Shown piece by piece: positions 23,931-51,954 of a stretch of 64,000 nt of DNA (the first letter of the stretch is position 1; the number at the start of each line of letters is the position of its first letter). The translations under genes and the position numbers were made by a program. The stretch lies in assembly GCA_964016885.1 (NCBI GenBank), contig OZ024743.1, forward strand, positions 111,042,001 to 111,106,000. The letters run 5' to 3'. The notes under the pieces are model-generated. The model did no database searches. It saw only the letters and a list, made by a program, of their open reading frames with translations, and was not told where the DNA came from. The stretch is from Eledone cirrhosa (lineage: Eukaryota).

Positions 23931-24220
23931 TTAAGATGCTACAAATATTCATTAATGTAGTAGATGAGGGACAAAATAATTAATACAACTATACTACATC
24001 TAAGGAAGAATGCATGAATTTATATGATTCATTTCAAAACGATTCAGATTAAATATACGCTGAATTAGTGATATAAATCGCAAATGGATATCATGAATTC
24101 GGAGCAGCTTTTGTGATACAATCATTATACAATCTTTAAAAAGACTATATAAATTGATTGCAATACTTGAAGCTAAACTTATCGATAATAGAACAGTTAA
24201 CAACTTATTAATTACAACTA

Positions 24221-24443
24221 GGGCGGTGGATTGGCAGTATCGGTAGAGTGTTGGACACCATGCGTTGCAGCATAGAGTTACACTCCTTTACGGTCTGAGT
24301 TCAAATCCCGCCGAGGTTAAATTTGCTTTTCAACCTTACTGGGTCGATAAAATAAAGCACCAGTAACGTACTGGATCGATTTAATCGACTTTCCCTTGCC
24401 CCCAAATTACTGGTCTTGTGCCTGAACCAGAAACCATTATTAT
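24221..24443 (+). mobile_element. Full-length tRNA-derived SINE (long variant)
   Basis: gggcggtggattggcagtatcggtag..gagttcaaatccc..core..cgatttaatcgact..tail gaaaccattattatt. Confidence 0.9.
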
Positions 24444-25441
24444 TGAATATATGTTTAGGTATCTATTTGATTTTTTATATTTGAAGAGTGGCTGTGAAAA
24501 TATAATTTGTCAAGCAATCTTCTCAGTTTCAGTTTGAATTGCAGTAATTATTGATAAATATGTTTCGATTTTAGTATATGTATATGGGATCGAATGCCTT
24601 ACATGAACAGTGATTATCTTAAACCTATCTAAAAGATTAATATAGAAAATCCAGCATATTCTTTTTTATAAATAAAGCAAACATTTACAAAATTACAAAG
24701 CGTTGGAATGAAGAACTTTTTTTTCTAAATTATTCTAATTGAGATCCCTTTATATTATAGGAACCAGGCGAAAAAATAGAAGGATTACTTGAGTATAATG
24801 CATAATGTTATTTGTTCCGGTTTTCTATGTTCTGCGGTCAAATCTCTTAGAGGTTAAATTTTATTTAATCCTCCAAGTTTCAGTGAGATTCATCGTTTCA
24901 AATATTGTTAAGGCCCACATACATAGCTCATGGTTTAGCAGATTGCACTGGCGCTACATGAAATAAAGTATCGAAACCAACATAATCGAAATCCCGAACT
25001 TACGAGGACGAGCCGAATGTTGACACTGCACTGTAACCTACGGGCGATATAACTGACATTGTTCATCTACCAACGATCACAATTGTTTTATGGAAAATTC
25101 GAGAAAATTTATATGTTAAACCTGAAAATATCTCGATAATTTCCTCAATGGAATCGATAAATGTACAATAACTTTTCTTTATTATAAGACTTACGATTGT
25201 AAAATTATACTAGCAAATATTTCAATTAACTTCACACAAAATGTCCATATATACAACTTCGGAAATGAAATGATACGAGTATATAATTACTTTATAGCAT
25301 ATTCATGCAAGTGACAATGAATATGTTACGCGTGACATAAAATCATGTCATTCTTATTATTTTTTAGACGTAAATGTACGTACATTGACTAAAATAGCAT
25401 AAGTGTGAAATAATAATTCTGATAATTATTTTCATGTCCTA

Positions 25442-25495
<54 letters not shown>

Positions 25496-25670
25496 ATAAT
25501 AATAAATTTGAAGACAAAAATCCAAAGAGTGCTCCACTGTATTCGCGTATGCTTGTGTATGTACGTACTTGGATGCGTGTATGTATTTATTTATTTCAAT
25601 TACCTCTGTATTTTATTTACTTTATTCTTAACTCTGAAGCGGAGCATCATTCAGTTTCCTAGTTAGAATT

Positions 25671-25943
25671 TTAGTCTACGACTTCAGCTATACCATGTAC
25701 GTGGTTTTGTCTTTGCGTGCAATTGTTCTCCATGCTCCACATATGACGTATTATCTTCGTTTTTTTTCCGTTCATTGCCAGAGAACGTCTCTATGAACCA
25801 CCTAAGAGAATATTAGTCTACGGCTTCTTTTATACCATAAACGTGGTTCTGTCTTTGCGTGTAATTGTTTTTCACCGCTCTTAATAACGACGTATTATAT
25901 TCGTTTTTTTCCCGTTCTTTGCCAGGGAACGTTTCCACGAACC
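25671..25943. repeat. Diverged 142-bp tandem duplication
   Basis: ttagtctacg...gaacca at 25671 and 25813. Confidence 0.8.
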
Positions 25944-26084
25944 AAAGTATCGTCTTCCTGTCTTCCTCCAGTTGCAACGTTTTTTGAAATATTCGCTTCT
26001 GCGTTTACAGATTGACTTTGTCAGTTTCAGAAGATCCCGTTAAGGGTGAGAGCAGCCATTCTTTGCTTAAACTTCAATATGTTA

Positions 26085-26137
<53 letters not shown>

Positions 26138-26269
26138 GTGAGGTTTTTTTTTACAAAATGAAAAATAACCGAGGTATCCTACACGAGTGAAAGTATAAAG
26201 AAAAAGAGATGAAATCGAAAATGCAACTGAAGTCTTATTTTTTTTTTAAATATATATATTTATTTGGTT

Positions 26270-26307
26270 CCTTTACCGGTTTCGCAGTTCTTCTGCTTTT
26301 CAAAAGG
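26270..26307 (-). ncRNA. Minimal type I hammerhead ribozyme in 3' pLTR (U3-A8 core variant)
   Basis: cctt-UUGAAAA-gcag aagaa ctgc-GAAA-ccgg-UA-aagg; palindromic stem III ACCGGU. Confidence 0.85.
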
Positions 26308-27108
26308 TGAGTTGAGATGGAGGGTCTGTGGTTTTTCTCACATCTGGTTGGTCTCTGAATGTTACTTGTTTTATATGGAAAAAGTGGCTCGAAATTCCAG
26401 GTTTTTCGAGAAGTAATTTGATTGGTTAGTCAATAATTATAATAAATTTCGCGCCAGTTCGCGTTAGAATAGTTCTTCAAATAAGAGAGGGGGTGGGGGG
26501 TTATCACATGTTGTTTTTTCATATATGAGTGTTTGAATTTCTTTTTACTTGAAAAAAGGAGGCTCACGAAGGCTTTTTTTTGGTTGGTTATAAATGAAAT
26601 TTGGCTGTCACGTGAACAAGTTTTTATTACATTTTTGCGCCCTTATTTGGAAAACTATTCTATTGTCTTTATAGTGAATGTTATGACAATGGAGAGATAG
26701 TGGTCAAGAGAAAAGGGATTGGGAGAAATGTTCTGGTTCAGTGAATATGGCCAGCTCGCCGGGGTGTCAGAGTTCAGATTTTCTATTGAGACTGAAGATA
26801 TGTATGTTTATTTGTGTGCTTGTGTGTGTGTATGTGTGTGTGTGTGTGTGTATGTGTGTATTGGAAGATGATTCTATTAGTAGAGATGGGGGAGGGAGTT
26901 GTGTGTGTGTGTATATGGGTGTTATGTGTGTGTGTGCGAGTATGTTAAGATGGAGAGAATATATATTTTGTGTGTGTGTATATATATGTGTGTAGGAAAG
27001 TGGTTCTATTAGTAGAAATGGGGAGGGAGTTGTAGGTGTGGGGGTTGTTATGTGTGTGTATGGGTGTTATGTGTGTGGGAGTATGGTTAGCATGTTAAGA
27101 TGAAGAGA

Positions 27109-27139
<31 letters not shown>

Positions 27140-27347
27140 GTGTGTGTGTATATGTGTGTGTAGGAAAGTGATTCCTTTAGTAGGAATATTTTTGAATGAA
27201 CATATTTTCCTTACTTTTTCGTGTTTGCTGTTGTATTGCCAGTGCAAACGTATGTTAAGGTTTATTTAGTTCGGGTTTTTATTTTCTAAAGTAGAAGGTG
27301 TTATGTGTGTGTATGTATGTCATATTGTGGTGTTGACATAATGTATA

Positions 27348-28856
27348 TTAAACCTTATTTAATGTTGGTCTATATTTTCGAATAAACATATTTTCCTTAT
27401 TTATTCGCATTTGTTCTGTTGTATTGTTAGCGCAAAGGTAAAATGGGAAGACTTGGAATTTGGGTGTCTTATTACTTGCGCAAATGTCTAGATGTGCACT
27501 TAGTGGTATCTGTCTCGTGGTTGGATCTCGTAATTGTTGGCGATGAACTGTCATTCTGTTTCTGAGTGTGAGTTTAGTTTGTCCTATATAATCTTCATTG
27601 CATCCTTTACATTTATTGGCATAAATTAGATTTTTTGATGAGCAAGTGAAGTGATTTTTTACAGTAACATTTTGTCCTGATTTCAATGTATACGTGTTGC
27701 CTTCAATGAGGTGAGTGCAGGTTCCACAATTAGAGCGACCACAATTTTTGATACTTGGTTGTGGGTTTGTGGTAGGTAATTTGGCATTGGTGAGTAATAT
27801 TTTCAGTGATTTTGGTTGTCTTTTGCTTTTGATTATGTTGTGTGTTTCAAGGGCTTTTTTTATTCTTGGGTTTTGTTTTAGTAGTGGGATGTTATTGTGA
27901 ATAGTGTTGTAAGCTTCCGCATTTCTTGGGTTGTGTGTTGAGATATATGATAGAATATTGGACGTACCTTGAATTTGTTTCTGTTTCCGTAATTCATCAA
28001 TGCCTATTGCTTTAGCCCTTTCTATTTCATTATTTATTAGTAATAGTGGGTACTCTCTCTCAAGTAGAATTTCCTTTAATTCTTGAAGTCTTTTATTTCG
28101 CGTTTCATAATTGGAGACAATTGTGCAAATTCTTCTTGCTAGGTTAAAAGGAATGTTCGTCTTCGTGTGCTTTGGATGGTTGGAGGTGAATAGCAGATAT
28201 TGTTTGGAAACTGTTGGTTTGTAGTGTATGTCAGTTTCGATATTTGTGTCTTTTTTTGTGATTAAGATGTCCAGAAATGGGAGTTGATCTTGGCTGTATT
28301 CCATTGTGAATTGGATGTGGTTATTGATGCCGTTTATTAAGTTTTTGAAATCCTTCAGTTGGTCGAGTGTGTGGGACCAAAGAATGAGGCAATCATCCAA
28401 GTAGCGTTTCCAATTCTCTGATAAATATTTGTGGAAGTTCAATCCGTATTTTGATTTGGACTGTTCATATATCTGGACTTCTAAGTATGCCATGACTAAG
28501 TTGGCATAAGTTGGAGCGGCTTTTGTGCCCATCGCAGTCCCCGATATTTGCTTGTAAGTATTGCCATCGAAATCAAAAAAGTTGTTCTGTAGGATGAATT
28601 TTAATCCCTCGGTGATGAAGTTTTTTTCTATTCTGTCAGTTATCTCATTGGGATATTTCTCTAGCCAGAATCCTATTGCTTCTAGTCCGTATTGGTGTGG
28701 GATCGTTGTGTAGAGATTCACTACATCGAAAGACACAATAACAGTGTCGTTGTTGACATGTTTGGGGAGGTGGTTTAAGAGGTCCAGATCGTCTCTTACA
28801 AGGCTTGGTATGTGTTTCAGTATTGGTTTCAGTAGTATGTCTATAAAGTTGCTCAA
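27348..28856 (-). CDS. PLE RT (C-terminal part), Cys-rich linker and GIY-YIG endonuclease
   Basis: SFDVVNLYT, GTAMG, RYLDD, LPFLD, YKPT; CGRSNCGTC linker (Neptune-type); NLIY..CKGC..YIGQT..LRNRMTVHR. Confidence 0.93.
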   Translation of the reverse strand: MSNFIDILLKPILKHIPSLVRDDLDLLNHLPKHVNNDTVIVSFDVVNLYTTIPHQYGLEAIGFWLEKYPNEITDRIEKNFITEGLKFILQNNFFDFDGNTYKQISGTAMGTKAAPTYANLVMAYLEVQIYEQSKSKYGLNFHKYLSENWKRYLDDCLILWSHTLDQLKDFKNLINGINNHIQFTMEYSQDQLPFLDILITKKDTNIETDIHYKPTVSKQYLLFTSNHPKHTKTNIPFNLARRICTIVSNYETRNKRLQELKEILLEREYPLLLINNEIERAKAIGIDELRKQKQIQGTSNILSYISTHNPRNAEAYNTIHNNIPLLKQNPRIKKALETHNIIKSKRQPKSLKILLTNAKLPTTNPQPSIKNCGRSNCGTCTHLIEGNTYTLKSGQNVTVKNHFTCSSKNLIYANKCKGCNEDYIGQTKLTLRNRMTVHRQQLRDPTTRQIPLSAHLDICASNKTPKFQVFPFYLCANNTTEQMRINKENMFIRKYRPTLNKV

Positions 28857-28899
28857 TCTGTGTGTTTCACATTGTGGGCCCGCTACAATTGGTCTTAAT

Positions 28900-29619
28900 T
28901 TAAGGTCTGTGGGGGTATTGTGTGTTCACGCAGGCTGAGGTGGATTGTTTACAGGCATCGTTGATTATTTTACATTTGTGGATCTTCGGAAGTCCGTAAA
29001 GGTTGCTGGTTTTGTATTCAAAATTTGTTAAATAATCGCGTTCCCTTTTAGTTAGGTCTTCCTGGTATCGATAAATCAGTGTGTTTAATTTGGTCATTAT
29101 TTTTGATTGCTGGTAGTTTTTTACTCTTTCATAGTAATTAGTATTTTGTAAGAGAGAGAACATAGAATTTTTATATTTTTCAGCCTCCATAATGACAACA
29201 GTACTTCCCTTGTCCGCTTCCTTAATTACAATGTCCGTATTGTTTTTTAGTTCATGGATAATCTCCCATTCCCTTCGACTTGTGTTGGGTTTGGGTTTAG
29301 GTTGCAGTAGTTCATGGTATGGGAAGGTAGCTATGTGGTCACAAAATTTGTCCAGAACTCTGTTTCTACCTTTTGTTGGGTTGTAGCTGCTTTTATTCCG
29401 TACAATTGATTCGTCGTTATTCTCCTTGTCAAAGAATTCCTCTGTGAGACGTAATTTTCTACAGAAGTGTGAGATATCGTCATTTATCTCGTTGGGGTTA
29501 GGGTATTGTGGTGTTGGTGTGAATTTCAGACCTTTGGAGATAATTTTTACTTGTTGGGCTGAGAGGTTTGTATTTGAAATGTTAATTATTTTCGGTTTTT
29601 CAAAATCGGTTTGTACCAC
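28900..29619 (-). CDS. PLE N-terminal/RT-proximal segment (frameshifted from 27348-28856)
   Basis: IINIS..LS..ISKGLKFTP, IVIKEADKGSTVVIM, YGLPKIHK. Confidence 0.9.
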   Translation of the reverse strand: MVQTDFEKPKIINISNTNLSAQQVKIISKGLKFTPTPQYPNPNEINDDISHFCRKLRLTEEFFDKENNDESIVRNKSSYNPTKGRNRVLDKFCDHIATFPYHELLQPKPKPNTSRREWEIIHELKNNTDIVIKEADKGSTVVIMEAEKYKNSMFSLLQNTNYYERVKNYQQSKIMTKLNTLIYRYQEDLTKRERDYLTNFEYKTSNLYGLPKIHKCKIINDACKQSTSACVNTQYPHRP

Positions 29620-30789
29620 CGGGTGTCGTGAGTCCTGTAGCCTTGGTCTAAAAAATGATTTTTCTGGACTGTTTTTTCATTGGTATTATTATATCTAATG
29701 GTATTTCCCCTGTTGTTGTGTGGTCTTGTATAGAAGTTTCGGACGTATTGAGGTTCGGTTTGATGATAGTCCGGGTTGTAGATTTGGTTCCTTTGTGTGG
29801 GTTGGGATCTACGGTTTTGGAACAGGCTCTGTGTGGGCAGGGGTCTACGGTTTTGGAATAGGTTTTGTGTGGGTTGTGATCTGCGGATCAGGTCCTGCCT
29901 TGTGTTCGGGGATCTTTGGTTTTTGTTAGTAGGGTTATAGTTTTGTCTATGGTTTCTGGGATTATCGTTATAGTTTTGCTGGGGGTATGTTGGACGTTTT
30001 GTTACTTTTTTTGTTATTTGTTGTGCATGTGGTGTGTGAGTTTTAGTTTGTTTTAAAAATGGGTTACCTGTATGTTGTTCATTTTTGAAGTCCATTTCGT
30101 AGTTGTTGAACCAGGTGGCGTTTTTTTCCCATCGCTGGAGGGATGTTAGTTCTTCATCCTCACAGTTTTCTTTCCAAAGTTTTAGGGTTTTTTTGTAGAG
30201 TAGGCCTTCAGAGTGCTTTGAGATTTCTGTGTCCATCTGTTGGTCGAGTGACTTGAATTTTTCTTCGTTGGAGTTGGCTCTTAATCGCAACAGTTCTATT
30301 TCTGTTTCAAATTTTTCCAATGCCATCTTTTCCCTAAGTCTTTGTTGGTTTTCTGGTTCATTCGGGATGGGTTTTATTTGGAGTTTTTTGGGGAGGATGA
30401 TTGGGGTAGAGTTTAGCCACTTTTCATATATGTCTGCCTTGCCATTATTTTTTAGGAGATTCCAAAGGGCGAATTTCCGGGCTGTGAGCTTTTGAGTCCA
30501 TATGTTGATTAGGGTGTTTTTCACTGAGTGGACATCTCGTAGATTGGGTTCTAACGGTTGTTCAAGCTTTTGGAGAATTGATGTTTCAATGGTTTCGATT
30601 AGCTTAGTTAATACTGGAGTAATATTCGTCTCTTGGGTATTTTCCTGTTTCTTCGTGGGGCCCTTTTTTATAGATGTGTATTTGGTCCACTTTGTTGGTC
30701 AAAATTGAGAGTTTAGAGGAAATCTCTTTGAGTTCATTTAAGATGTCCTGGTTCAGTGAGTTGTTGTTTTGTTGAGACTTTGGTGGCAT
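29586..30789 (-). CDS. PLE upstream helical/coiled-coil region with basic Q/N/R-rich tail (ORFs 30604-30789 and 29586-30524, probably one frameshifted frame)
   Basis: ATG at 30789 lies ~28 nt after the 5' pLTR. The 312-aa ORF is K/E-rich and helical, with repeated RRSQPTQNLFQN. Confidence 0.65.
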
Positions 30790-30953
30790 TTTCGGTCTTC
30801 GTGTGGTGGGTATATATTAGAAAGTGAGGTTTTTTTACAAAATGAAAAATAACCGAGGTGTCCTACACGAGTGAAAGTATAAAGAAAAAGAGATGAAATC
30901 GAAAATGCAACTGAAGTCTTATTTTTTTTTTAAATATATATATTTATTTGGTT

Positions 30954-30991
30954 CCTTTACCGGTTTCGCAGTTCTTTTGCTTTTCAAAAGG
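30954..30991 (-). ncRNA. Second copy of pLTR hammerhead (one stem II mismatch)
   Basis: cctt-UUGAAAA-gcaa aagaa ctgc-GAAA-ccgg-UA-aagg. Confidence 0.8.
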
Positions 30992-31262
30992 TGAGTTGAG
31001 ATGGAGGGTCTATGGTTTTTCTCTCATCTGGTTGGTCTCTGAATGTTACTTGTTTTATATGGAAAAAGTGGCTCGAAATTCCAGGTTTTTCGAGAAGTAA
31101 TTTGATTGGTTAGTCAATAATTATAATAAATTTCGCGCCAGTTCGCGTTACAATAGTTCTTCATATAAGAGAGGGGGGGTTATCACAGGAACCAAATAAA
31201 TATATATATTTAAAAAAAAAATAAGACTTCAGTTGCATTATCGATTTCATCTCTTTTTCTTT

Positions 31263-31410
31263 ATATATATATATATATATATATTTACATATATAATATA
31301 TATATATATATAATATATATAAATATATAATCTATATATACATATATATTCACATATATATATATGCATATGTTTATATATACATATGCATATATATATA
31401 TATGTATATA

Positions 31411-31490
<80 letters not shown>

Positions 31491-31547
31491 TATAAATACA
31501 CATATATATATATACACACACATATATATATATATACATATATATAT

Positions 31548-31581
<34 letters not shown>

Positions 31582-31585
31582 TATA
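31263..31585. repeat. (TA)n-rich microsatellite separating two PLEs
   Basis: Direct reading. Confidence 0.95.
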
Positions 31586-33495
31586 TAATCAACCAAAAAT
31601 CACCTAGAGGAAATCAAAATTGCTCCTGTAGAATCAAAAGTGAATGCCCATTACAAGGTAAATGCAACACCAAAGACATTGTATATGGGGCTAAAGTGAC
31701 AACCATCAGCAACAACCAACCAGCCACCAGTGAACGATATGTGGGTATGACGCAAGACAAATTGAAAACGCGTTATTACTCACATGTCGGAACCTTTCGA
31801 CATCCAGAAAAAAGATTTACAACAGCTCTGGCTAGCAGAATATGGGATTTGAAAGACCAAGGTATCCAATATAAAATGGATTGGTCAATTTTGAACCAAT
31901 CTAAAGAATATGCAAGATGAACAAGAAAATGCACGCTCTGCATAAATGAAAAATATTGGATTTTGCAAAACCTTAAATCACCAAAGACCTGCCTAAACAC
32001 AAAGACAGAAATTTTCACCAGTTGCCCACACATGAAATCACACCTGTTTCCAGCTCATATAAACTTAACACACTTTCAGATACTTATCCTCCATAAGCTC
32101 TTATTCTTCACTTAAATTATTGTCTTTAAGACTACCTTTTCTGATTTACTTTCATTTTTAACCTTTTAATTAATTTTATTTTTATTTTTATTTTTATTTT
32201 TATTTTTATTTTTACTTCACATCCACCACGACCCCCCCCCCATCCTTTACACTCGATTCACTTACCTAATATCTTCACTTTCCACCTTTTACTTCCATAT
32301 TTTATTCACTACCTAAATACAAATCTCACTTGCGTTTTCCACTCCATATATTTTCTGTTATTTCGCAGCCAATTTTATATTTTTATATTTGTACTCACTT
32401 ATTCACAAGGCTGTTTTTACACCCTGTATCTATGTGTCTGAGAGTCTTTACGTGTGTATACTTTCTGTATATTTACACGAACGCCTCCGTATGTGCGCGC
32501 GCGTGCGTGTATATATATATATGTGTATGTATTTGTGTTTTTATATCTGTGTTTTTACATCTATGTTTGTTTACATTCTTAGTTTTATGAGTGTGCATGT
32601 TAGCAGGTCAACGTTCGTGAGTGTATGTATGTGTGTGTGTGTGTACGTACTGCATGTATGGATATGTATGTGTGCGTATGTATATATACGTATATATATT
32701 TATGTGTGTGTATGTGTGTGTATACAGTCGCGTACGTACGCGTGATTATATATACATGGGCGATGTGTATGTATATATATATATATGTGCATCCTGTGTG
32801 TGTATGTACGCTTGCATACGCTTTTGTCTGCACGTATTGCGTGTATATATATATTTTTTTATAGATATATGTTTCTTTTAGATATATGTGTGTATGTACG
32901 CGTGTACCTTGTTTGTTTTCTTTTCTTTACTTTGCAATTTTTTCTTTCTAATTTATTGTTCCTATTTTTATAATTATATCGAGAATGATACTTTCTTTTT
33001 ACTATTACACTCCCTTACCTCTTTTTCTTCCGCATATAAGTGTACACGCGTGCGTGTGTGTTTATACGCGTGCCTTCATATTCTTATAATGTATCTAATT
33101 CCCTGTTTGTTTATGTATACCTGTCAAACAGACATTCATATCATGTCTGTGTCTATCGTTACATATACACAGATATACTTTCCCTTATACATATATTTAC
33201 GCACACATTTTCACTATACACACACATTTGTACATACTTACATATGTATATCTGTGAGTGTATATACATACATATACACACACCTAACTATATTTCTTTA
33301 AAAAATGTTCATATATTTTATATGTCTATTTTTCTTGCATTTCTTGAGGAGACTTTCCAAATATTTATCTATATTTTATATTGCTTCGTCCGACGAACGA
33401 ATGAAGATGTTTCTTTCGTATTCTTCTTATTCGGGAAACCTCTGGTAATGAGGTAATTATTTTGTATTGTTTCTATACATTATATAAATATATAT
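31585..33495 (+). mobile_element. 5'-truncated PLE of a second clade (Nematis-like): GIY-YIG domain plus long low-complexity 3' region
   Basis: [69 protein letters not shown]; one in-frame TGA at 31918-31920. Confidence 0.85.
33384..33453 (+). ncRNA. Type I hammerhead ribozyme (slightly decayed) at the 3' end of the Nematis-like PLE
   Basis: cttcgt-CCGACGA-a cgaat gaaga...tcttc tt attcg g-GAAA-cc tct gg-UA-atgagg; U4C change in core. Confidence 0.7.
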
Positions 33496-33829
33496 ACAGT
33501 TAAGGTGACAACAAACAGAGGTTCAAGGTGTATTATTACTTCCACGACTTATATGGAAATGAGGAAAAAAAGTTCGGCGAGTTGGTTTTTAGCTCTTTTT
33601 CAGCAGTAAAAACTAGTGACAGGAACCCATAGGATGGATAGAGAAAATAGAAATAGCCGAAGTTTAGTAACAAATTCGAAAATAAATTGTGTAAATAAGA
33701 CAAACTGCCTGGCAATCTTGGAACGCCAATTGAAATGGGTGTGTCTATTAGTGTCGATATTATGTGTGAGTGAATCTGTATGTTTAACCGTGTGTGTTTT
33801 TCTAACGTACTCGTATTGTATCAAGTATC

Positions 33830-34023
33830 TGAATTGACAGTATCGGTATAGTGTCGGCCGCCATGCTTTGCAGCAAAGAGTTACGGCCCTTTATGATCTG
33901 AGTTCAAATCCGGCCGAGGTTAACTTTGCCTTTCATCCTTACGGGGTGGATAAAATAAAGTACTAGTAATACATTGGAATAATTGCTGGCCTTGTGCCAA
34001 AAGTAGAAACAATTATTATTATT
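33830..34023 (+). mobile_element. tRNA-derived SINE whose (ATT)n tail abuts a Tx1 element
   Basis: Head, B box, core and tail gaaacaattattattatt. Confidence 0.9.
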
Positions 34024-37000
34024 GGCTGCCAGTCAGTAAAGTTGTATTTTTGGAGCTCCGAAAAAGTAGGAAATTTTCTGTTTATTTTTTTATTTTCATT
34101 TATAATAATTGTTGTATTCCCTGAAGAGTGTCGTAAGACTTCCGTCTTTGCCATGTGAAGGGGTGACTGTGTAACATTTGACCCTTTTGGCCCAAATATT
34201 TGAACATTTTTGTATCTAAAAAAAAATTCTGGAAAAAAAAAACATGGCTGGGCCACGCTACCCAACTTGAAGTCTGCTGTCGTGTGACAGTGACCAAAAT
34301 GTTGAGAGGAGGGAAGCGGCAGGTACATTGATTTATACTACAAATACATTTAGCAACATCACCACAAACAGCTTGAACAGTTGCAGCAGCGACACGAATA
34401 ACCTTAAAAAAAACTATGACAATACAAACCACAGCAGTAACAGCGACAACCAAAATACAGACAACAGAAATGATGACAACAAAAACAACGAAATTAACCC
34501 CACTAACCAGAACATAAACAGCGATAGCACCAACAGCAACAATACCAAAAGCCCCGACGGCGGCACCAAAGATATAACAAACTGCAACAGTGATAACAGC
34601 AACAACACCAACAAGAACAACGACAACAACATCACCACCAACGGCAAGAACATATTCGCTGCGGCAGCAGTCAAAAAGAGGCCATGCTTCAGCATGGATC
34701 TTTAGAACAAAGATGAAAAGTTGACCCAGTCCTGGAAGCTCATCAGGTAAGAGCAAACCTGGGCCAACTTAACTCGCCTGGTAGAAGCAGTGGAGCGCAG
34801 AACGGTTCATTATAGATGCATCTCAGCAAAAACCAAGAGGGCAGCTTTAATTGTACAAGCTGATGTCGAAGTCGCGTTCCGGTGCATCAGGGATGACACC
34901 GAATACATAGCGAGAGGCAGACAATACGGCAACATTTCGGCGCTGTTTAATTCAGAAGGTTTCGCTATGAAGCATGCTATGACACTTGCAAAACCAGCAA
35001 GTAATGTACCCATCCTTTATGGGAAAAAGATCCGCCCGTCTGCACATTCCCAGAATCGCACCAGGACTTCACATGTGGTGGCTTCTGAGGTGTGGGATTT
35101 TAGAGGGGACGGATACCGTCCCGATAGAAGTAACAAGAATTGCCAGAGATGACTGGTCCGGGGTTGACCTGGAGTTACTTCTCCAGATCAGGCAGGAGAA
35201 TGTAAAAAAAATCCCGGACCAAATCCATCTTCAGAACATCATGTCTGAGGGTTGAGGGCCGCATTGTTTCGTTTGTGAGGATAAAACCCATTTGCGAGCC
35301 TTCTGCCCTCAACTGCAAGGGGCCGAAGGGCTCCACTGTTGCCCACGCCGGGGCGAGGACTACAACTAACAACAGCACGGCCGAAACCACCAGCAACGAC
35401 ACAAATAGAAACACCACCACCAACATTGACCACCCAAATGTGATAGAAGGAAAGTTGCCAAAAAATACACACATCAATAAAAACATAAACACACACACAG
35501 ATACACCTACAGGCACAGGCCCATAATTTAGCAGTAGTGAAGACGAAGGAAAACCAAAATCCCCAAATATGCAAAAAAGGAAACACAAAACGAAAAAAAC
35601 TCAACCAAGCACAAAAACACTCAAAATAAAAAATGCAAACACCACCCACGCAAATATCACTAAACCTTGCCCCTCTATTTTAGCCTGTCAATATTACCGT
35701 ATTAAGAGTAGGACGTTTAAATGTTCGAGGCCTGAGATCGTCCTGGAAGCAGGGTCATCTGCTCAACGACCTCAGGTCTCTAGAAATGGATGTAATTTCC
35801 GTTAGCGAGACCAGGATTTCCGACACGCGCGCACTAGCCCCAGTTTCGACGACTATCAGATCTTAGCGTCTGTTAGTCGTCCGGGAATGCGAGGTGGGGT
35901 CTTAGTGCTGTTTAGGAAAGGCCCGAATCTAGAGGTAAGGTCGATCATCCGGGACCCGGACGATACGTTGGTGGTCCTGGATGTGAACAATAGCTAAGGT
36001 GGTGGACTAACGGTCTGACTTCTTTAGACGCCTGGAACCCTTCTGGTTACGTCTCGCCGTTTTCTGTTAGAGGGGGACTGGTAAGGCATCTTAGACGCAC
36101 GCTGTAACTATGTGGGAGTATGCGATATGAGCGGGGGTGCAAAAGCCTCAAGTACCTGATCAGCCAGTTCCAACTGTCTAACAGATACCGACTAGATTTC
36201 CCTAATACACCAGTATCGACTTGGACCAACCGCATGGGACCATCTATATCGTATATAGACAGGATATTCATTAGGAAAATAGACAGAAATAGTGTAAGCG
36301 GGCCACGTTTTAACACGGTCGCTTATTCAGATGACAATTTTGTGATCTGTATGGTCGACCTACATAAAACCTGGTTACTCGAAGCAGAACATGTCATTTC
36401 CGGCCCGTAATGCTTCAGGGACAGGGTCAATGATTTAGTTAAGAACAGGTTGACAGGGGGTGTCGTCAACATTGGATAGTGGGGGGGGGGGGGGGGGTCT
36501 CAAGAGAGGGATAGGGTTTAGCAAGAAGTAGCGTTAGAAAGAAATAGAAAGGAGGGGATATGGTTGATAAGTTAGACGAGGCTATTTGTAGTGGCATTGT
36601 AACTGACGTGCTAGCTGCGAGAAGGGCATTAGAACATTTCTTCAATGCGAAAGATGAAGGTTGCATTGTCAGAGCTAAGGCGCGTGCTCTGAGATACGAG
36701 GGAACCAAATCTGTGCGATGGGCCTGCGTGACAGAGGCGGAGCATGGTAATGAATCCTCGATTCAGTCTTTGACGAAACGAGACGACAACTAGCTGAGCG
36801 AGTCCAAGCGGATGTGTGAGGCCTTTCGCCAACATTTTACTCGGTTGTTCGGTGGAAGTGGCGGCTCAGAGACGGTGGCGGACATCAGTCCCTACCTCGA
36901 TGGCCTACGCTGAGCGCTGCGAAAGGGCGATTACTTCAGCCGAGATTCAGGATGCCTTTGTCGGCTGCATGAGGCACAAGTCACAGGCTTTGGATGGTCT

Positions 37001-39251
37001 GCCCTACGAGCTTTACGTAAATATGCCAGAATTGTTCTCCGATCTCCTCGAAGCACTCTACTACAACTGGCAGCAGAACGGGAGTATTCCCAGTTCTGTT
37101 AGCCGAAGCGTAGTGACACTGATAAGGAAAGACGAGAACAACAGGGACACAGACAATTTCAGGCCCATAACTCTGGTCAACACAGAGTTTGAGATTTTGG
37201 TCAAGGTGTTACCAAAGTGATTGGCACTTGTCGTCGAGGTTTTGACTGGGAAGGAGCAAATTTGCACAATCCCAACCAGGCCCACATACGACAACCTCCA
37301 CCTGATACGATACATCATAGAGAGGTGGGGTTCTGATCAATTCAGATAAATCGAAAGCATTCGATAGGGTCGAAGATCGGAACCTGGAGGCTGTCCTCAA
37401 GGCAGCTGGCTTCGGCCCCGTCTTCAGAACCTGGAATGCTGCAATGCACAGCGGCATTTGCTCATTGTTAGAGTTAATGGCCACCACTCTAAACCGTTCG
37501 GTCTGTCGTGAGTGCCCGCTCTCCTCCCTTCTGTACATATTGACTCTCGAGCCTATAATGCGGAAGCTGGAGCTGTTGCAGGGCCTCCCGGTCTCACCAG
37601 GACGCGGAAAGGCTGTGTTGGCTTATGCGGACGACATCATCGTGATGGTGTCGGACACCTCGGAAATCGAGGTGGTTGGCGACTTATTTGAGGAATATGA
37701 AAGGTTGACGGGAGCAAAACTTAACCTGGAAACGACATTGGGCTTGCAACTCAACACCTCGAGAGGCAAGTTCATGCCATCCAACAGCGTCGTTGTGCGC
37801 TGGTCGGACGGACCGGTAAAGTTGCTCGGGGTTTGGTTCGGGCCAGACCTCCAGGTGGATAAGAATTGGGATGAAGTCACGAGCAGGGTAGCCAGTCTCA
37901 CCCAAAAATGGGCTGCGATGAAGCTATCACTGAAAGGTCGGGTGGAGGTGGTGAATGCGTACATCGCTTCCACCATCTACTACCACCTGACTGTCATCCC
38001 TTGCTCCCGTTCGCGCCACGCCAACCTGGAACAGGACATCTTCATACTATTGTGGAGTGGACAGGGTCCGCTGGAGAGGCGGTCCAGCTGTTGCCAGCAC
38101 CCTCTACGTGGAGGGCTGGGCATGCCGTGGCTAATCATGCGCAGAAATGCGCTGAGGCTGCGGCATCACCAGATATTCTACCTAAACGGTGAACAGGTGT
38201 GGCCACCTTTTGTCAGAGCGTCCTTTGAGCAGCTCGTCTCTTTGACTGAGCTGCAGTTCTGGGTCAAGAAGAGACTGAGGCTGGGTGATTGGCATCTGGG
38301 ATGTTGCCCAGCATTCACTGACCTCTACCAGGCGGGCAATGCGTTCAGTGATACTTCTACTCTCGAGTTCTATAGAGGATTAGTGTGGGCAAGCATCGGA
38401 GAGGCTCTGGGCGTCGACGAACTCGAACTAAGCAGTCTGTTCCGGAGGATTTCGAGGCTGGGACGATGGAGGATTTCCAAAAATCCCTCCCTTGGTGGTG
38501 CTACCGGCGGGGCTTTGCACGTTCGAGATAAACTCTACAGGCACGGAAGTGCTGTCAGACGGACCCGCCCGAGATGGGCGCAGGGCGATGTAACCGTTCT
38601 GCACGCACTCGTGCAGTGTCCGTGCATTCCTGAGTTTTTTTAGTTATGTCGAACAGCTGTTGTCGCGTGTAGACCGGATCCGACAATGAACCGAAGCCAT
38701 AGTCAAGATCGACCCGCCGTATTCTTTTGGCTAGGAAGGGCAGGCAGTTGTCCTCTGTCTGGTGGCAGTAGCGAAATTGTTTGTATGGTGGACCAGGTTG
38801 AAAGAACTGAAGACAGACACTTTTCTCTTCGGCAAATCCCTCATCAACTTTTTCAAGTTTCACTTGGAAAGGAAGGTGAGGCTGGAGAGAAAAGTTCTGA
38901 CCCCCAGTAAATTTGCTGAATGGTGGGTGAATGTGGTGAGAATGACCCGTGTGAGTGGGCTACTCTAATCATGCGCCTATAGGTGGATTAATTTGAGTAG
39001 GAGAGGGGTGCCTTTCCCGGGTGCTCTCGAAGCGTTGGGTGGTTCAGGATTGGTGGGGTACCTAAGTGAACCCTGGGTGGTCATCCCCCCTATTGGGGAA
39101 TTTTCCTTGTATTTTTATTGTTATTTTGTTATTATTATTTATATCGTTTACACATTGTATATGTAAACCTCCACTGTACATGTCTTTTGTATTGTCCCCT
39201 GTATGTCGGCCCTTGTGGCCAATAAATGAAACTATTATTATTATTATTATT
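34024..39251 (+). mobile_element. Tx1/L1-clade LINE, full-length but decayed
   Basis: ORF1 remnants 34328-35700; APE (TWTNRMG..IDRIF); RT (DGLPYELY, NFRPITLVN, CPLSSLLY, AYADD); 3' aataaa plus (att)n. Confidence 0.92.
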
Positions 39252-42200
39252 ACAGTTGCATTTATCTGGCTTTATGTTCATACGAGTTATCACCAAGTCA
39301 CAACCAGTGACCTCAAGAGACAACAAGGTCCGCCATGTTGTAGAAAGAACATACATATTCACACATGCATCTTTAGTGTTTAGACTTGTGATGTACTTAT
39401 ATTGACAGAATCTTTCTTAGTATATGGGCAGTTCCCAATAGTACTATCTTTTGTATTTCTCCTATACGCGGGTTTCCTGGGATTTGCGATATGTAATCAT
39501 TAGACCCCTTAGGTATCATTCCCAGAGCGCCTACAACCACTGGTATTGTTTTAGTTCTCAATTTCCACATTTTTACAATTTCTATCTCCAAGTCCTTATA
39601 CTTGCTCAATTTTTCAAATGTTTTTATAGATACATTCTTGTCTATTGGAACAGACATATCAATTAGCAGGCATACCCTCTTTTGAAAGTCTTTCAATATT
39701 ATATCAGGTCTGTTTGCATCGATTTTTCAGTCTGTTTGGATGCTAAAGTTCCACAAGATTGAGATGTGATCTTTTTCAAGTATGGGAGGTGGTTGATGCT
39801 CCCACCAATTCTTTTGATGGGGCAGGTCAAAATGCTTACACATTATCCAATGTATGTATTGTGCAGCTGTCATGCCTGTTTAGGTATTCGGTTGGAGCTA
39901 TAGGACTGCACATTGAAATTATATGGTCAATGGTCTCTGGTTGTTTTTTGCATACACGGCATAATGGGCTGCCACCATTTTTTATTATGTTGGTTTGGTA
40001 ATTTTTTGTTGGCAGACACTGATCTTGTGCCGATATAATCAGTCCTTCAGTCTCCGATTTCAGTCCAGAGGATGCCAACCACTGATGGGTTAAAGTTTTG
40101 TCAACATCAGGATTGTTAGCTCGCTCTGGGTATTTTCCATACAGAGGCTTTTCTTGCCATTTCTTAGCCAGTTTCTGTAGCAGTTCTTTCTTTGCAGTTA
40201 CTTTTACCTGCTTTGCTTTTTCTGTGTTTTCCATTTCAGCAGTAAATGGGACTTCTGAAATTTGTAGTCCGTTACTGTATCTTTATGCATCTTTTGTAAT
40301 GGAATATGATCTTTAGATGCTTTCGTGTTTCAAAACGAGTTTGGTCATCCAATCATGTGATTCCCTTAGATATGTAGATAATCCAATTGTCGCAGTTTTC
40401 AACGCAATGTCTAACTGGATTAACCCACGTCCTCCTTCTTTCCTAGGGAGATATATTCTATCTATATCTGCCTTAGGGTGATGCATTCTGTGCATGGTTA
40501 AGAATTTTCGAATTTTTGTATCGAGCCTACGGATCTCTGTGCTTGACCAGTTGATGACATTGTAACTGTAGGTTACTACTGGTATGGCAAGCGTGTTTAT
40601 GGCATCGATCCTATTGCTTGCATTCAATTCCGTTCTTAAGATTGCTCTTACTCTGCGGTAACATTCCTTCCTTATCCTTTCCCTCATTGTCGAGTGCTTG
40701 ATTTCGTCTCCTTCACAAACACCTAGATATTTGTAAGTTTTTTCTTGATCAAGTTCTCTTATCACGTTCCCCCGATCAAGATTAATGTCTGAACTCTTCA
40801 GCAGCTTTCCTCTGGTGAACGTTGCTTTGGCGCATTTATCTAGTCCAAACTCCATTTTAATGTCATCACTGAACTGCTTCACAGTGGATAATAGCCCTTG
40901 CAATTGTTCATCATTTTTTGCAAATAGTTTCAGGTCATCCATGTAGAACAGGTGATTAATGGTTTTGTCATAGACTTTATATCCATGTTTTGTTTCATTA
41001 AGCATTTTACTTAATGGTATAAGTGCGATGCAGAATAAAAGCGGTGATAAAGAGTCACCCTGAAAAATTCCACAATTAATATTAACTTCTCCAGCTTCCA
41101 GTGATTTTGTTTCACTATTCAAAAGGAGTGTCGTTTTCCATGTCTTCATACTGAATGACAAAAACCTCCTGACAACGGGGGATACTTTGAAAATCTCTAA
41201 ACATTTTTCAATCCAACTGTGTGGCAAACTATCAAATGCTTTTTTATAATCTATCCAAGCAATCGATAGATTTTTGTGTCTATTATGACAATCTTCCAGT
41301 ATCATTTTGTTAACCAGAAACTGATCCTTACAGCCATATGAGCCTCGTTTACACCCTTTCTGCTCAATGGGAAATAGGTCATTTGTTATCAGGTGGTCAT
41401 ATGTGTATTCAGTTAGGACTGATGTTAAAATGTTATACATTGTGGTCAAGCAAGTTATCGGTCTGTAATTTTGGGGATTGTTTGTCTCATCATTCTTCGG
41501 AAGCAGGAATGTAATGCCGTTAACTAGCCATGAAGGTATCTTTTCTGGCTCCTTAACTATTTCATTGTAAAGTTGGGCTAACAGCTCATGAGACTCTGTG
41601 AAGGCATTTATCCAAAAGCTTTGTATTTTGTCTTTTCCTGGGGATTTCCATTTGCTGGTTTTTCTTAGAGCCAAGCGCAACTGTTCAACTGTTATATTTT
41701 CCCATGTTTGTTCCTCAAGGTGAGCTGTATCTTTCATTTGTCTGTCTATCCATGGGGCATGTATGTTATGAACTTTTTCTTCGGCCCAGATCATTTCCCA
41801 GAATTCTTGCATTTCCTCCTTGGGTGGTATTGATTTAGCAGTTATTGTTGACTTACCAATTTTTCTGTAGAAGTTTCTTTGGTTGTTTTTGAACATATTA
41901 TTGTCCTTATAGAATCTAGATCGTTTTTCACAGCGCCTTATACGAGCAGCTTTGGCCGACACTTTTTGCTTGATTATTTCTATCAGCATGTCTATGTCAC
42001 ATGTTCATTTTATACTGTACTTTTTTTTCAATTTTCTAAGTTTAGTTTGTTTAACATGTTCACCTACTTTATAGTTTGTTAAAATGTCTATGTCACATCG
42101 GAGAAGGTTTATTTGACGATTGATGTTCTCTTGCCAAGTAGATTTCTTGTGGGAATTCCTTTGTTTTTTCATCTTCACTCCACATAAGTGAGTGGTGACT

Positions 42201-42650
42201 TTAGCCGATGCATAATAGAGATGATTTAAATCAGTAATGTTTAGTTTGTTTGTGATGATAATGTTTTTGAGAATTATGTTAGTCTTGTGTATTATCTTTT
42301 GGTTCTGTTTGGAGTTCTGGATCTTAGGGAGGGTGTCTCGTTGCCCCATGTCAGATTCTTTCATTTTCATCCATTCGATCATAATTTCATCCTTCAAGTT
42401 GGCAAGTTCGTTCTCATTCATTTCTTTATCATTTACGATCTCATTATTTTCATTTGGAGTTTCATCCTGAGCATGCACTCCCTCCACTTTTTCGATCCTT
42501 TCTTTAATTTGTTCTGATGCCAGTGATTCCGCCCCAACCCTGGGATTCGAAGTGTCACATTTTTCCTCGTTTTCACTGACACATGTTTCATTTTCCCTTC
42601 GCTGACTTTGTGCTAATAGCTTTATCTGATCAATTTCTATATCAGTTAGT
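39252..42650 (-). mobile_element. R4/Dong-clade non-LTR retrotransposon (RT, CCHC, RLE), 5'-truncated and frameshifted
   Basis: ORFs 42005-42487, 40313-41989, 39836-40234 (CRVC..ETIDHIISMC) and 39397-39696 (CLLIDMS..KLSKYKDL..LLGTAHILRKIL); (TAA)n at both ends. Confidence 0.92.
40313..41989 (-). CDS. R4/Dong reverse transcriptase segment
   Basis: YRPITCL, IDYKKAFDS, GIFQGDSLSPL, FYMDD, YKYLG. Confidence 0.92.
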   Translation of the reverse strand: MLIEIIKQKVSAKAARIRRCEKRSRFYKDNNMFKNNQRNFYRKIGKSTITAKSIPPKEEMQEFWEMIWAEEKVHNIHAPWIDRQMKDTAHLEEQTWENITVEQLRLALRKTSKWKSPGKDKIQSFWINAFTESHELLAQLYNEIVKEPEKIPSWLVNGITFLLPKNDETNNPQNYRPITCLTTMYNILTSVLTEYTYDHLITNDLFPIEQKGCKRGSYGCKDQFLVNKMILEDCHNRHKNLSIAWIDYKKAFDSLPHSWIEKCLEIFKVSPVVRRFLSFSMKTWKTTLLLNSETKSLEAGEVNINCGIFQGDSLSPLLFCIALIPLSKMLNETKHGYKVYDKTINHLFYMDDLKLFAKNDEQLQGLLSTVKQFSDDIKMEFGLDKCAKATFTRGKLLKSSDINLDRGNVIRELDQEKTYKYLGVCEGDEIKHSTMRERIRKECYRRVRAILRTELNASNRIDAINTLAIPVVTYSYNVINWSSTEIRRLDTKIRKFLTMHRMHHPKADIDRIYLPRKEGGRGLIQLDIALKTATIGLSTYLRESHDWMTKLVLKHESI

Positions 42651-42653
42651 AAC

Positions 42654-42689
<36 letters not shown>

Positions 42690-42899
42690 GGCGACCTACG
42701 TAGGAAATCGTATTATCGTGAGCTCCGCAAAGGTTTGTTATTTCCGTTTGTTTAAAAATTGCCATTTATGGAAAATTTTATTGTAAACTGTTTATAAGCA
42801 CACATACATTGTTTTCCGAAAAGGACACCCAAAAAGATTGGGGCCTTGTGCCCAACATTTTAACTTTTATTATTATCCAAAATTTTCTTTGAAAAGAAA

Positions 42900-44898
42900 A
42901 TGGCTAATTCCCCTCTGCACGAAGCAGCTGAAAGCCTTCCTCACAAAATAACACCTCACACCGACACCACCATTGTAAATGTTACTACGTTTGCCAACAC
43001 AAAAAAACATATAAGCAGTAGCAATATTTTAAATTTGTCTCAGACAGACATTCATTTCCCGCCATTACCAATGACTGCAGGTGTTAAACCCTCCACCACC
43101 ACCACCACCGCGACAACCACCACCACCACCACCACCACCGCGACAACAGAAACAAAAGAAGAAAAAAATAAATTAACTCGTGACGTCGAAATGAAATCAA
43201 GCAAAATGGACTCTTCCTCACCAAAGACGACTGACGTCCCCACCACCACAACTGAAAATAAAATTAATATTAACGATAGCAACAACAACAACAATGACAT
43301 TATAAAACCGACCCTCAGTTTCGCCATCGTAGCAAAACAATTCGAAGCGTTCACGTTAACTCAAGAAGATTTAGAAAATGCCAAACAAATGCTAAAGAAA
43401 GACGGGTACAGGGTCAGCCTCACCCCCCCCCCCCCCCACACCTAATAAAATGGAGCATCGGCGCCTGTGCACCGTGTCGTATAGAACAATAAATGTAAAA
43501 TCGCGCCGAGTGGAACGGGCATCCGAGTCCCAAATCCAAAAAGCTTTGGGACATGTGTGGGCAAGAAAAACCCACATCAGACGTGGGCAAAAGTATGGAA
43601 CCGTGGATGTGTTCTTTGAGACACCAGAGGAGGCTAGAGAACACTCCATGGCCCCATTAAAAAGTGACGACCTCACACTCGTCCCAAGCTATTGTGGCCA
43701 GAGACTCGTAAAGATCAGGGTGACCCACGTTCCACCGGCCATCGAAATTCCCTGGCTAATAGCGGCTGTCCTCGCCGGCATCGAAGCCAACACGAAAATA
43801 ATAGCAGTAGCAAAAGAAAAGCAGGAAAACTGGTCCGGATCTGGGATGGAGCTCCTGATCCAAGCGGACCAAAAAAGCATTGAGGAGATCCCAGAGGTAA
43901 TAGACCTCACTGACGGCAGCCACCTCACGGTAATTGTCGAGGGCAGAAGACCTAGGTGTGTCGTTTGTGGTGAAGGAACCCACCTAAGGGCTTTCTGCCC
44001 TCAGGCTAAAAGGTTGAGGCCACCTCTCCTACCCACCCCAGTGACACAACCATCAACACCACCAGTAGCAGAGATGGCAGCAACAACTGTAGCAGCAACA
44101 ACAGAAGCAACTATAACAGCAACAACCCCAGCAACAGTAGCAAAACCAACACCACTACCACCACCAGCAAAACCAACACCACCACCACCCAACGCTTCAG
44201 AACTAGCACCAGCGCCTACACCATCCACCACACCACAACCAAAACTAACGGCTGTGGAGGATTTTCCACTCCCCGGCCTATCACAACTGGAGACAGATTG
44301 TGACGACGAGGAGTGGGAAACGATATCCGGAAAAAAAAAAGAAACCAAAAAAGAAAAAAATTCTCTTCCTTCCCCCTCCAAAAACAAAATACAGAGGGAA
44401 ACAAATAAACTAAGAAACAAAAAAGTTAGGACAGATATGCCACCATCCACACCAGCATCACCAACCCCATCAACCCAAACACCAACACCATCACCATCAT
44501 TATCCCCAGCACCACCATCACCTACACCACAAAAGTCACCAAAATGCGAACCAGAAACAAACCCACAACAAACGCAAACAAAACAAAACAACCAAAACGA
44601 TACACACTACACAGCATTAAATTTGAACAACAAGCAATTATTACACTACATCCAACACAACACCAGCATCACAGAAAAAGACTACACAACAACCCCAAAA
44701 TTCACACCACCTCCACACATACAAATCACGCGCATCACACAGAAAACGTACATGACACTAAAACAAAAATTCCCCAAAGACATCGGAGACTTCCGACAAG
44801 CACTCTCCAGGAGGATTTATAAGGACATCCTTCCTGAGGAGGCCACAAGCAGTGAAAAGGATGGAAAAGCCGTCCTTCCCCTACGAGAAGTAAGGTAA
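42900..44898 (+). CDS. Tx1 ORF1 (Thr-rich N-terminus, RRM-like region, CCHC knuckle, Pro-rich tail); split by a frameshift at the poly-C run ~43425-43438
   Basis: ORFs 42900-43445 and 43450-44898; CVVCGEGTHLRAFC (Cx2Cx4Hx4C). Confidence 0.85.
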
Positions 44899-44932
44899 GT
44901 GGTCTTTCCCATCTTTTCCACTCCTTTTCAAC

Positions 44933-46267
44933 ATGACCTCACTCAGAATAGGCAGCATAAATGCGCGTGGCTTGGGGTCGTCATGGAAGCAGGGCCACCT
45001 GTTCAACGACCTCAGGTCACTAAACATAGATGTAGTGGCCATCAGCGAGACCAGAATCTCCGAAGCACAGGCTTTCGCACCGATCTTCGGCGGCTACGAT
45101 GTGTACGCATCTCCCAGCCGTCCGGGATCGGGGGGAGGAGTTGCTGTGCTTTTTCGGAGAGGTTTGGATCTTGCCATACGGGCCATCCTCCTGGACCCAG
45201 AAGGTAAGTTGGTGGTGCTGGACGTGACCAGCGGAGACGGGCAAGCTTTCAGGTTAGTGGCCGTCTATGCCCCGACAGGAGCAGGGCGGCCTGATTTCTT
45301 CCGGCGTCTGGAGACCTTTCTTGGAACGTCCCGCTCTTTAGTGTTAGTGGGCGACTGGAACGGGATCTTAGATGCACGCTGGGATTGTGTGGGATTAGTG
45401 GACAGGGAAGGAGGGTGCAAGAGTCTCACCAACCTGCTCAGACGTTTTGAACTGTCTGACAGGTACCGAATGGATTTCCCGAATGTACCAATGTGGACTT
45501 GGACAAATCGCATAGGGTCATCCAGATCAGATCTAGATAGAGTATTTTGTAGGGAAATAGATAGGTCTAGCATAGGCTGTCCACAATTCAAGATAGTCAG
45601 CTACACGGACCACAAATTCGTGATCTGTGTGCTTGACTTAGATAGGCTTCATAGACGAGGACCCGGCTACTGGAAGCTAAACGCGTCCTTACCAGCGCGC
45701 AAGGCCTACAGAGACCGGATTAGCGAACTAGTTAAGCGGGCGTTGACGGGGGCCATCGTCAACAACAAGTGGTGGTTTGCTCTGAAAAGAGCAATTAGAA
45801 TAGAGTCCATTAGGTTTAGTAAGACTTTAGCAATAGAGAAAAATAGAGCAGAGGGAGAATTAGTTAGAAAATTAGATGAGGCGCTTAGCAAAGGCATCGC
45901 GACCGACGTACTTGCGGCGAAATTGGCCCTTGACCAATTCTTCAATGCAAAGCACGAAGGCTGCGTTGTCAGAGCTAGGGTGCGTGCTCTCAGACACGAG
46001 GGGACGAAAGCCGTTCAATGGGCCCGAGCGGCGGAGGCGCGTCGTGGCAACAAAGCCACGATCCGGTCTTTGGTGGACCACGACGGGCGCATGCTACTCG
46101 ATCCCGGGCAAATGTGTGAAGCTTTTCAGCGACACTTCGCTCAACTGTTCGGGGGCAGTGGCGGGCCGGATCGAGGGATGGACTTTAGTGTCACCTTTCG
46201 GAACCGTTCAACATCATGCGCTCGGTCTGCCAAGGATGTCCCCTCTCGTCCCTATTGTACGTATTGA
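44933..46267 (+). CDS. Tx1 ORF2 APE endonuclease and linker
   Basis: SINARGL, ISET, VYAP, GDWN, SDLDRVF, TDH, GPGYWKLN. Confidence 0.93.
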   Translation: MTSLRIGSINARGLGSSWKQGHLFNDLRSLNIDVVAISETRISEAQAFAPIFGGYDVYASPSRPGSGGGVAVLFRRGLDLAIRAILLDPEGKLVVLDVTSGDGQAFRLVAVYAPTGAGRPDFFRRLETFLGTSRSLVLVGDWNGILDARWDCVGLVDREGGCKSLTNLLRRFELSDRYRMDFPNVPMWTWTNRIGSSRSDLDRVFCREIDRSSIGCPQFKIVSYTDHKFVICVLDLDRLHRRGPGYWKLNASLPARKAYRDRISELVKRALTGAIVNNKWWFALKRAIRIESIRFSKTLAIEKNRAEGELVRKLDEALSKGIATDVLAAKLALDQFFNAKHEGCVVRARVRALRHEGTKAVQWARAAEARRGNKATIRSLVDHDGRMLLDPGQMCEAFQRHFAQLFGGSGGPDRGMDFSVTFRNRSTSCARSAKDVPSRPYCTY

Positions 46268-50517: not shown

Positions 50518-50552
<35 letters not shown>

Positions 50553-50736
50553 AGTATTTGCATATATATGTAAGTATTTGCATATCGAGTGTGTTCAGTC
50601 GGCCAGGCGTACCGAAAACGATAAGTTATAATAGAATGAAACGAAATTTCATTTCTCACTCTTTGTACGGCACTTACTTAAATGTAAGTATGTATGTATA
50701 CGTACATACATATATGTATACAGACGTACCGTAGTA

Positions 50737-50802
<66 letters not shown>

Positions 50803-51237: not shown

Positions 51238-51268
<31 letters not shown>

Positions 51269-51918: not shown

Positions 51919-51950
<32 letters not shown>

Positions 51951-51954
<4 letters not shown>

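Follow-up and report, generated by a model that had tools for sequence, protein, structure and literature searches.

The systems closest to the locus considered here are insertions of EN+ Penelope-like elements (PLEs), in which the role of the hammerhead ribozyme is called unclear (PMC8557442; this and the other papers cited by PMC number are represented by excerpts). According to PMC4209133, minimal PLE hammerheads cleave poorly in vitro, and in vivo evidence is stated there to be absent. The U3-A8 variant of the core was described in the same paper for Cercyon and is called active in vitro in PMC3088659, where C at core position 4 is said to lower the in vitro activity. In the Poseidon element PAc, two internal starts of reverse transcription were found in vitro, with both strands cut and extended (PMC11167929). 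Within the excerpt of that paper, ribozyme mutants had no effect on insertion in vitro, and no RNA-seq reads ended at the PAc hammerhead site. Ribozyme cuts mark the 5' junctions of two other retroelements, R2 (HDV-like ribozymes, PMC3774820) and Perere-3 (twister variants, PMC8501958). A literature search that covered few subscription papers returned no report of PLE junctions at a hammerhead cut. If genomic arm ends were to pile up at the scissile bond, this would give simple in vivo evidence that can be read from the assembly of any animal without bench work.

The element and its hammerheads

The window, which is the whole 64-kb stretch of DNA analysed, contains a decayed element that lies on the minus strand from 31187 down to 26125 and is inserted in (TA)n. 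Positions around its 5' ribozyme are given below as offsets, with 30957, the first base 3' of the predicted cut, as offset 0. The following features were recorded:

26091..26130, no strand: (TA)n target, left flank (sequence)
26125..26508, minus: 3' pLTR, 4684 nt from the 5' copy, ending in (TA)n (alignment)
26270..26307, minus: second hammerhead copy, N17 = 26274 (pattern scan)
27348..29676, minus: reverse transcriptase (RT) and C-terminal GIY-YIG endonuclease with CX4CxxC linker and CCHH motif, frame break near 28911 (Pfam, alignment)
29586..30789, minus: upstream ORF, ATG at 30789, frame break near 30644, no Pfam match (ORF list, relatives' reads)
30811..31187, minus: 5' pLTR, offsets -230..+146, 96.6% identical to 26125-26508
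30811..30877, minus: one-sided 67-nt tail between the end points, outer end 30811 (50 X1 contigs and 261 X19 reads end at 30811 into (TA)n)
30878..30881, minus: inner end point (UAUA), start of the inverted arm and putative priming site (43 X1 contigs end here into (TA)n)
30954..30991, minus: minimal type I hammerhead, U3-A8 core, palindromic stem III (pattern scan and alignment)
30957..30958, minus: predicted scissile bond, N17 = 30958 (from hammerhead numbering, not an assay)
31180..31195, no strand: inversion junction with 1-nt microhomology, base 31187 being common to both arms
31187..31265, plus: inverted arm, offsets +1..+79 past the predicted cut, head-to-head with the element, 78/79 identical
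31266..31284, no strand: (TA)n target, right flank, TA-rich on to about 31583 (sequence)

The two pLTR copies are alike over 384 nt and each bears a hammerhead; they stand in partial tandem beside an adjacent inverted copy and a one-sided tail. This layout of an inverted arm and two pLTRs is of a known kind and ordinary for PLEs, and the second pLTR with its hammerhead (26125-26508) was absent from an earlier note on this DNA. Both flanks consist of (TA)n, and a target-site duplication is therefore unreadable here.

Pfam returned an RVT_1 match (E 9e-7; 29.2 bits, just below the cut-off of 29.6) and, C-terminal to the RT, a GIY-YIG match (E 8e-5). The RT-EN protein had 832 homologues in the search, the closest named one among the matches listed being an Octopus bimaculoides protein (77%, with 67% of the query covered), which makes an octopod the probable host, and C395, C400, C403, C439, C442, H461 and H478 are invariant across 39 aligned sequences. 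The CX4CxxC linker and the CCHH motif point to an EN+ PLE of Neptune type; by eye, their spacing resembles that in the Neptune rows of Fig. S2 in PMC8557442. Both frame breaks, near 30644 and 28911, were judged against the reads of close relatives. The upstream ORF of about 400 codons, which precedes the RT-EN frame, looks like a separate ORF1 because the homologues reach at most 783 aa among the 120 listed. The 3' UTR (26800-27320) contains internal repeats (26835-27019 with 26969-27187, and 27186-27252 with 27372-27440) as well as (CA)n and (TA)n runs.

In the hammerhead at 30954-30991, stem I has 4 bp, the core is UUGAAAA (U3-A8 variant), stem II has 3 bp (4 bp in the 3' pLTR copy), and stem III is the palindrome ACCGGU. 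The conserved core was thus found with positions 3 and 8 paired and with GAAA and UH, together with stems I and II and a palindromic stem III for dimer formation. An unpaired base between positions 9 and 10.1, frequent in minimal PLE hammerheads and outside the search descriptor, is absent, the G after A9 pairing directly. A strict hammerhead scan of the window matched the two pLTR copies only, and 20 shuffles gave no match with a palindrome of at least 6 and two looser matches in all. No hammerhead family was among the 22 Rfam matches in 24000-38000. In the predicted cofold of two copies, the palindromes pair and stem I does not; the active hammerhead fold differs from the predicted minimum-energy fold, and stem I is predicted to be weak (-1.7 kcal/mol as a duplex). 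GC content climbs from 0-13% to about 50% at the point of the junction and the cut. The cut had been placed between 30958 and 30957 in the earlier note, in agreement with the prediction of N17 = 30958 from hammerhead numbering.

Several other elements were observed in the window. A non-coding insertion at 50540-51951, unrelated to the main PLE, consists of two tandem units of about 497 bp and an inverted unit, with both ends in (TA)n and every hammerhead copy mutated; it looks like a retrozyme or a non-autonomous PLE, and its inversion junction lies at -144 and -194, upstream of the cut. On the plus strand, 31585-32070 is a 5'-truncated piece of another PLE with CxCX5C before a GIY-YIG-like stretch, as in the Hydra clade, and with no Pfam match. 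The stretch 62376-63347, bounded by 221-bp terminal inverted repeats (99%) with TA at both ends, is probably a non-autonomous DNA transposon. ORFs resembling those of non-LTR retrotransposons, with endonuclease/RT motifs by eye, occupy 37321-38960, 43396-47715 and 40313-43445, two of the copies being 74% alike.

The inverted arm and reads of close relatives

Alignment within the window bore out the claim that 31187-31265 is the reverse complement of 30878-30956 (78/79, gap-free, E 8e-34). The arm matches 26194-26272 in the 3' pLTR equally well, so either pLTR copy could have been its source. Base 31187 fits either arm, which sets the arm end at +1 or +2. The junction is thus adjacent to the predicted cut, as had been claimed, at a distance of 1 or 2 nt rather than strictly 1 nt. 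The junction contains no palindrome, and the two arms, sharing 1 nt, end 230 nt apart in element coordinates. The long arm traverses both hammerheads, uncleaved, and extends to a point 229 nt upstream of the cut; it contains the whole 79-nt sequence of the short arm.

Contigs and reads of close relatives from four runs were aligned to 27330-31186, and the ends reported are those among the matches listed, the top rows of a set with 813 further loose ends and 46 further joints. The 21 runs listed as containing the sequence included no RNA run, which carries no information on expression. UAUA occurs at both end points (30811 and 30878) and can pair with the (TA)n target. The inverted arm begins at a regular end point of the family, because 30878 is a recurrent end in the 43 X1 contigs. 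On the upstream side, the loose ends listed for X1 and X19 lie at +68, -33, -72 and -196, and no pile at 0..+2 was present among the own-family ends listed for these runs. A strand-changing joint in X19 connects -3 with -64 (120 reads, 2 starts, one probable locus), and a single X1 contig connects -6 with about -70; we infer that these joints are head-to-head. Both extend beyond the scissile bond, so that run-off could yield them only if extra bases were added. Among the ends listed, the own-family read data lean slightly against a pile at the cut.

In X4, the block 30956-30989 is kept and both flanks diverge (21+5 and 24 contigs). Compensatory stem I changes in X4 were not upheld on counting; only the conservation of this block stands. 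In X1, the depth is 0.2-1.1 million over the pLTR versus 2-85 thousand over the ORFs, summed contig depth not being equal to copy number. Over 30813-31186 the depth exceeds that of the ORFs by a factor of 10 to several hundred, and short pLTR-only copies therefore dominate. Some pLTR copies are apparently without the hammerhead core (joint 30952-30998).

Arm ends in related families

Relatives were sought in several collections. An alignment search of prokaryote assemblies gave 45 loci bearing PLE-like ORFs, which most likely represent animal DNA of the hosts carried along in these records; L248, L254, L268, L269 and L283 are long contigs of this kind that contain PLE ORFs together with hammerheads and satellites. 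Viral and prokaryote sequences, scanned by pattern, and one metagenome scan yielded 241 loci, of which none matched the element in BLAST, and single-protein locus searches and alignment in viral contigs found no relative of it. A loose hammerhead pattern applied to five assemblies returned mostly noise or satellite and was rejected. Two other assemblies, G001 and G003, are rich in minimal hammerheads (20 versus 1 in the control for G001 and 64 versus 5 for G003).

Nine hammerhead families from G001 and G003 were surveyed with short queries (-15 to about +60); five of these family searches scored 40 of their 43-81 candidates. The survey produced 152 de-duplicated arm calls, with segmental duplicates counted once and 3 calls at contig ends dropped. 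Ends in -20..+35 (41 arms, 29 insertions) were read by hand with the site known to the curator, because automatic 5'-end calls misplaced ends at palindromic junctions and in indel subfamilies. Microhomology was assigned to the arm by the same rule as for the window junction, L490 and L620-type interrupted copies were scored as long, and the null for the P values was uniform over positions. Families C and H, the L336 family and the G005 loci were kept outside the tally, and no match starting at the cut occurred among their matches listed. An RT match was found in tested loci of families A, B, E, F and N and in none of the tested loci of families M, K and J, which are assigned to PLEs, as presumed members, by their hammerhead, inverted layout and two 3' ends. 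Of 12 insertions checked in relatives, only 3-4 show a clear target-site duplication (L367, 14 bp; L368, 13 bp; L365, 8 bp; L517, 6 bp).

At loci with an intact hammerhead, inverted arms end at -819, -622, -262, -233, -130, -89, -43, -34, -31, -24 and +10; that is, none within 3 nt of the cut except the window's own. This tally was set aside as the main test because its selection misses insertions that are hammerhead-less on both arms.

In the survey, six of the 33 ends in -20..+20 fall exactly at offset 0, with 0.8 expected (P 1e-4); without two degenerate calls the count is 5/31 (0.8 expected, P 9e-4). The interval -1..+3 holds 11 of the 33 ends (P 0.0013), or 9 of 31 without the degenerate calls (P 0.0097), against about 4 expected, and 10 of the 29 insertions have an arm end there. 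The distribution steps at the bond, with 12 ends in 0..+4 versus one in -5..-1 (P 0.002). The interval -8..-12, in which the longer stem II would be expected to stall RT, holds just three ends. In +1..+3, the range of the window arm end, four ends were seen versus 1.8 expected, none of them at +1.

The exact ends are spread over three families, namely M (L364, L369, L552), K (L344) and F (L505). L344 is a solo copy of 51 nt that starts at 0 (98%), L369 starts at 0 after one extra base, and L505 starts at 0 next to a partner that retains the 3' half of the ribozyme. A 3-nt microhomology in L364 leaves its end at 0..+3, and the L552 call contains one mismatch. Without family M, the counts are 2/20 for exact ends (P 0.085) and 3/20 for -1..+3 (P 0.45). 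The histogram of breakpoints, named in the earlier note as a check, thus has its pile exactly at the cut in these related families, and its excess rests mostly on one family.

Seven inverted insertions of family M are hammerhead-less; in six of them one arm ends at 0..+2, and the partner ends differ. The insertions of this family sort into two classes: in one, neither arm extends upstream of 0, and in the other, each arm extends to -25..-46, as though the template RNA had offered two 5' ends. L371, L385, L372, L373 and L393 (G001) show a second class of ends at -41..-48, immediately upstream of the hammerhead, which may mark another RNA 5' end.

Family N mostly carries C at core position 4 (CCGACGA in 16 and CTGACGA in 1 of 39 arm calls, 8 being unreadable) and has no end at 0, which in this one family fits cleavage as the source of such ends. 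It does have a pile at -35..-38, on a short palindrome; hotspots therefore exist for reasons other than the cut. L526, L529, L537 and L550 (G003) of this family are perfect palindromic insertions centred on self-complementary words at -38 or +4, and the family is abundant despite its mostly C4 core. Ends of family J lie at -1 and -6..-2.

As judged from genomic sequence, the pile at the cut in related families suggests, without proving it, that the ribozymes cut in living cells, and in some PLE families reverse transcription probably does run off the end of a cleaved RNA.

Origin of the junction and comparison with known systems

The best reading of the window junction is run-off at a hammerhead-cleaved RNA end, to which a probability of about one half can be given. 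The geometry fits this reading, as the arm begins at an end point that recurs in the family and falls 1-2 nt short of the 5' end predicted for the cleaved RNA. Given the observed structure, the two recurrent end points, the position of the junction and the related-family pile, we infer priming at the end points, the use of two templates (or of one cleaved mid-reaction) and cleavage of the 30954-30991 hammerhead. The Neptune-type PLE would cut both strands of the (TA)n tract, and each cut 3' end would prime reverse transcription at UAUA in the pLTR RNA. Priming at +146 would give the 5-kb arm, copied across two hammerhead sites that were uncleaved or had been religated, and priming at +79 would end in run-off at the 5' end of hammerhead-cleaved RNA. 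The cDNA ends would then be joined head-to-head via the 1-nt microhomology, with loss of the last base. Because the long arm crossed two hammerhead sites, run-off would require either another RNA that was cleaved or a cut made while the reaction was under way. Both a protein dimer, predicted in PMC11167929, and a dimeric ribozyme might allow for this.

The junction could also be that of an ordinary short 5'-truncated inverted copy ending near the site by accident. Short arms are common, many such elements were scanned, the excess at +1..+3 is small (4 versus 1.8), and the own-family ends listed show no pile. The background of 0.0041 per nt per arm corresponds, for -1..+3, to 2% for each arm and 4% for an insertion, and for this reason a single junction is weak as proof. 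Against accident, 66-72% of the relatives' ends in -1..+3 are excess over the background, and the ends step at 0; for the window, accident is unlikely but far from negligible.

RT pausing on uncleaved RNA, with drop-off near the site where an AU-rich stretch gives way to stem I and the dimer stem III, would agree with the rise in GC content at this point (0-13% to about 50%) and with the own-family joints (-3, -6) and family J ends (-1, -6..-2) that straddle the bond. However, the relatives' pile lies exactly at 0 with almost none at -5..-1, no pile occurs at their longer stem II, and stem I is predicted to be weak here; pausing is somewhat less likely than accident. In the model of PMC3846280, self-priming fold-back on the antisense template sets the junction by local pairing. 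Palindromic junctions do occur in the relatives L550, L526, L529 and L537, but the window junction, with no palindrome and with arms that end 230 nt apart and share 1 nt, leaves fold-back very little credibility.

Run-off at a cleaved RNA end had been taken in the earlier note as a footprint, and hence as evidence, of cleavage in vivo. The geometry and the pile in relatives speak for the footprint, but the 31187 junction alone is no evidence of in vivo cleavage, and together with the pile it is not yet evidence that the 30954-30991 hammerhead cleaves. The junction position by itself is suggestive, and the pooled pile makes run-off worth a genome-wide blind test. A broader proposal, plausible but held with some doubt, is that minimal dimer-type hammerheads of EN+ PLEs cleave in the germ line and that cleaved and uncleaved RNA template one insertion. 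Run-off cDNA of the short 3' module freed by the cut, which carries both priming sites, would then form the inverted arm or a solo stub, and arm ends, including the window junction, would be a fossil read-out of cleavage by family. If this is true, inverted and long arms can derive from different RNA forms.

In L1 twin priming, an inverted 5' piece arises by priming from the second target strand and is joined through microhomology, and on one linear RNA the inverted and direct parts meet without a long overlap. The present locus shares with it a second-strand-primed inverted 5' piece, as proposed, and the microhomology join, but here the short arm is wholly repeated in the long arm. Because of this duplication, a single linear template cleaved at 0 is ruled out. 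With EN+ PLE insertions (PMC8557442, PMC3846280), the locus has in common the two direct pLTRs, the adjacent inverted piece, the tail at one end and the microsatellite target; in the excerpts of these papers, the tail is 30-40 nt compared with 67 nt here, and the junctions are not related to the hammerhead cut. The ribozyme resembles the minimal type I hammerheads of PLEs (PMC4209133) in its short stem I, palindromic stem III, G10.1-C11.1 pair and U3-A8 variant and differs from those described in that excerpt by the missing unpaired base before stem II and by a shorter stem II. PAc likewise combines two internal RT starts bounding a tail with a pLTR hammerhead, but its starts, as far as the excerpt goes, are not homologous to the target (PMC11167929), whereas both end points here lie at UAUA matching (TA)n. 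With R2 (PMC3774820) and Perere-3 (PMC8501958), the likeness is that genomic junctions are read as footprints of the cleavage of template RNA.
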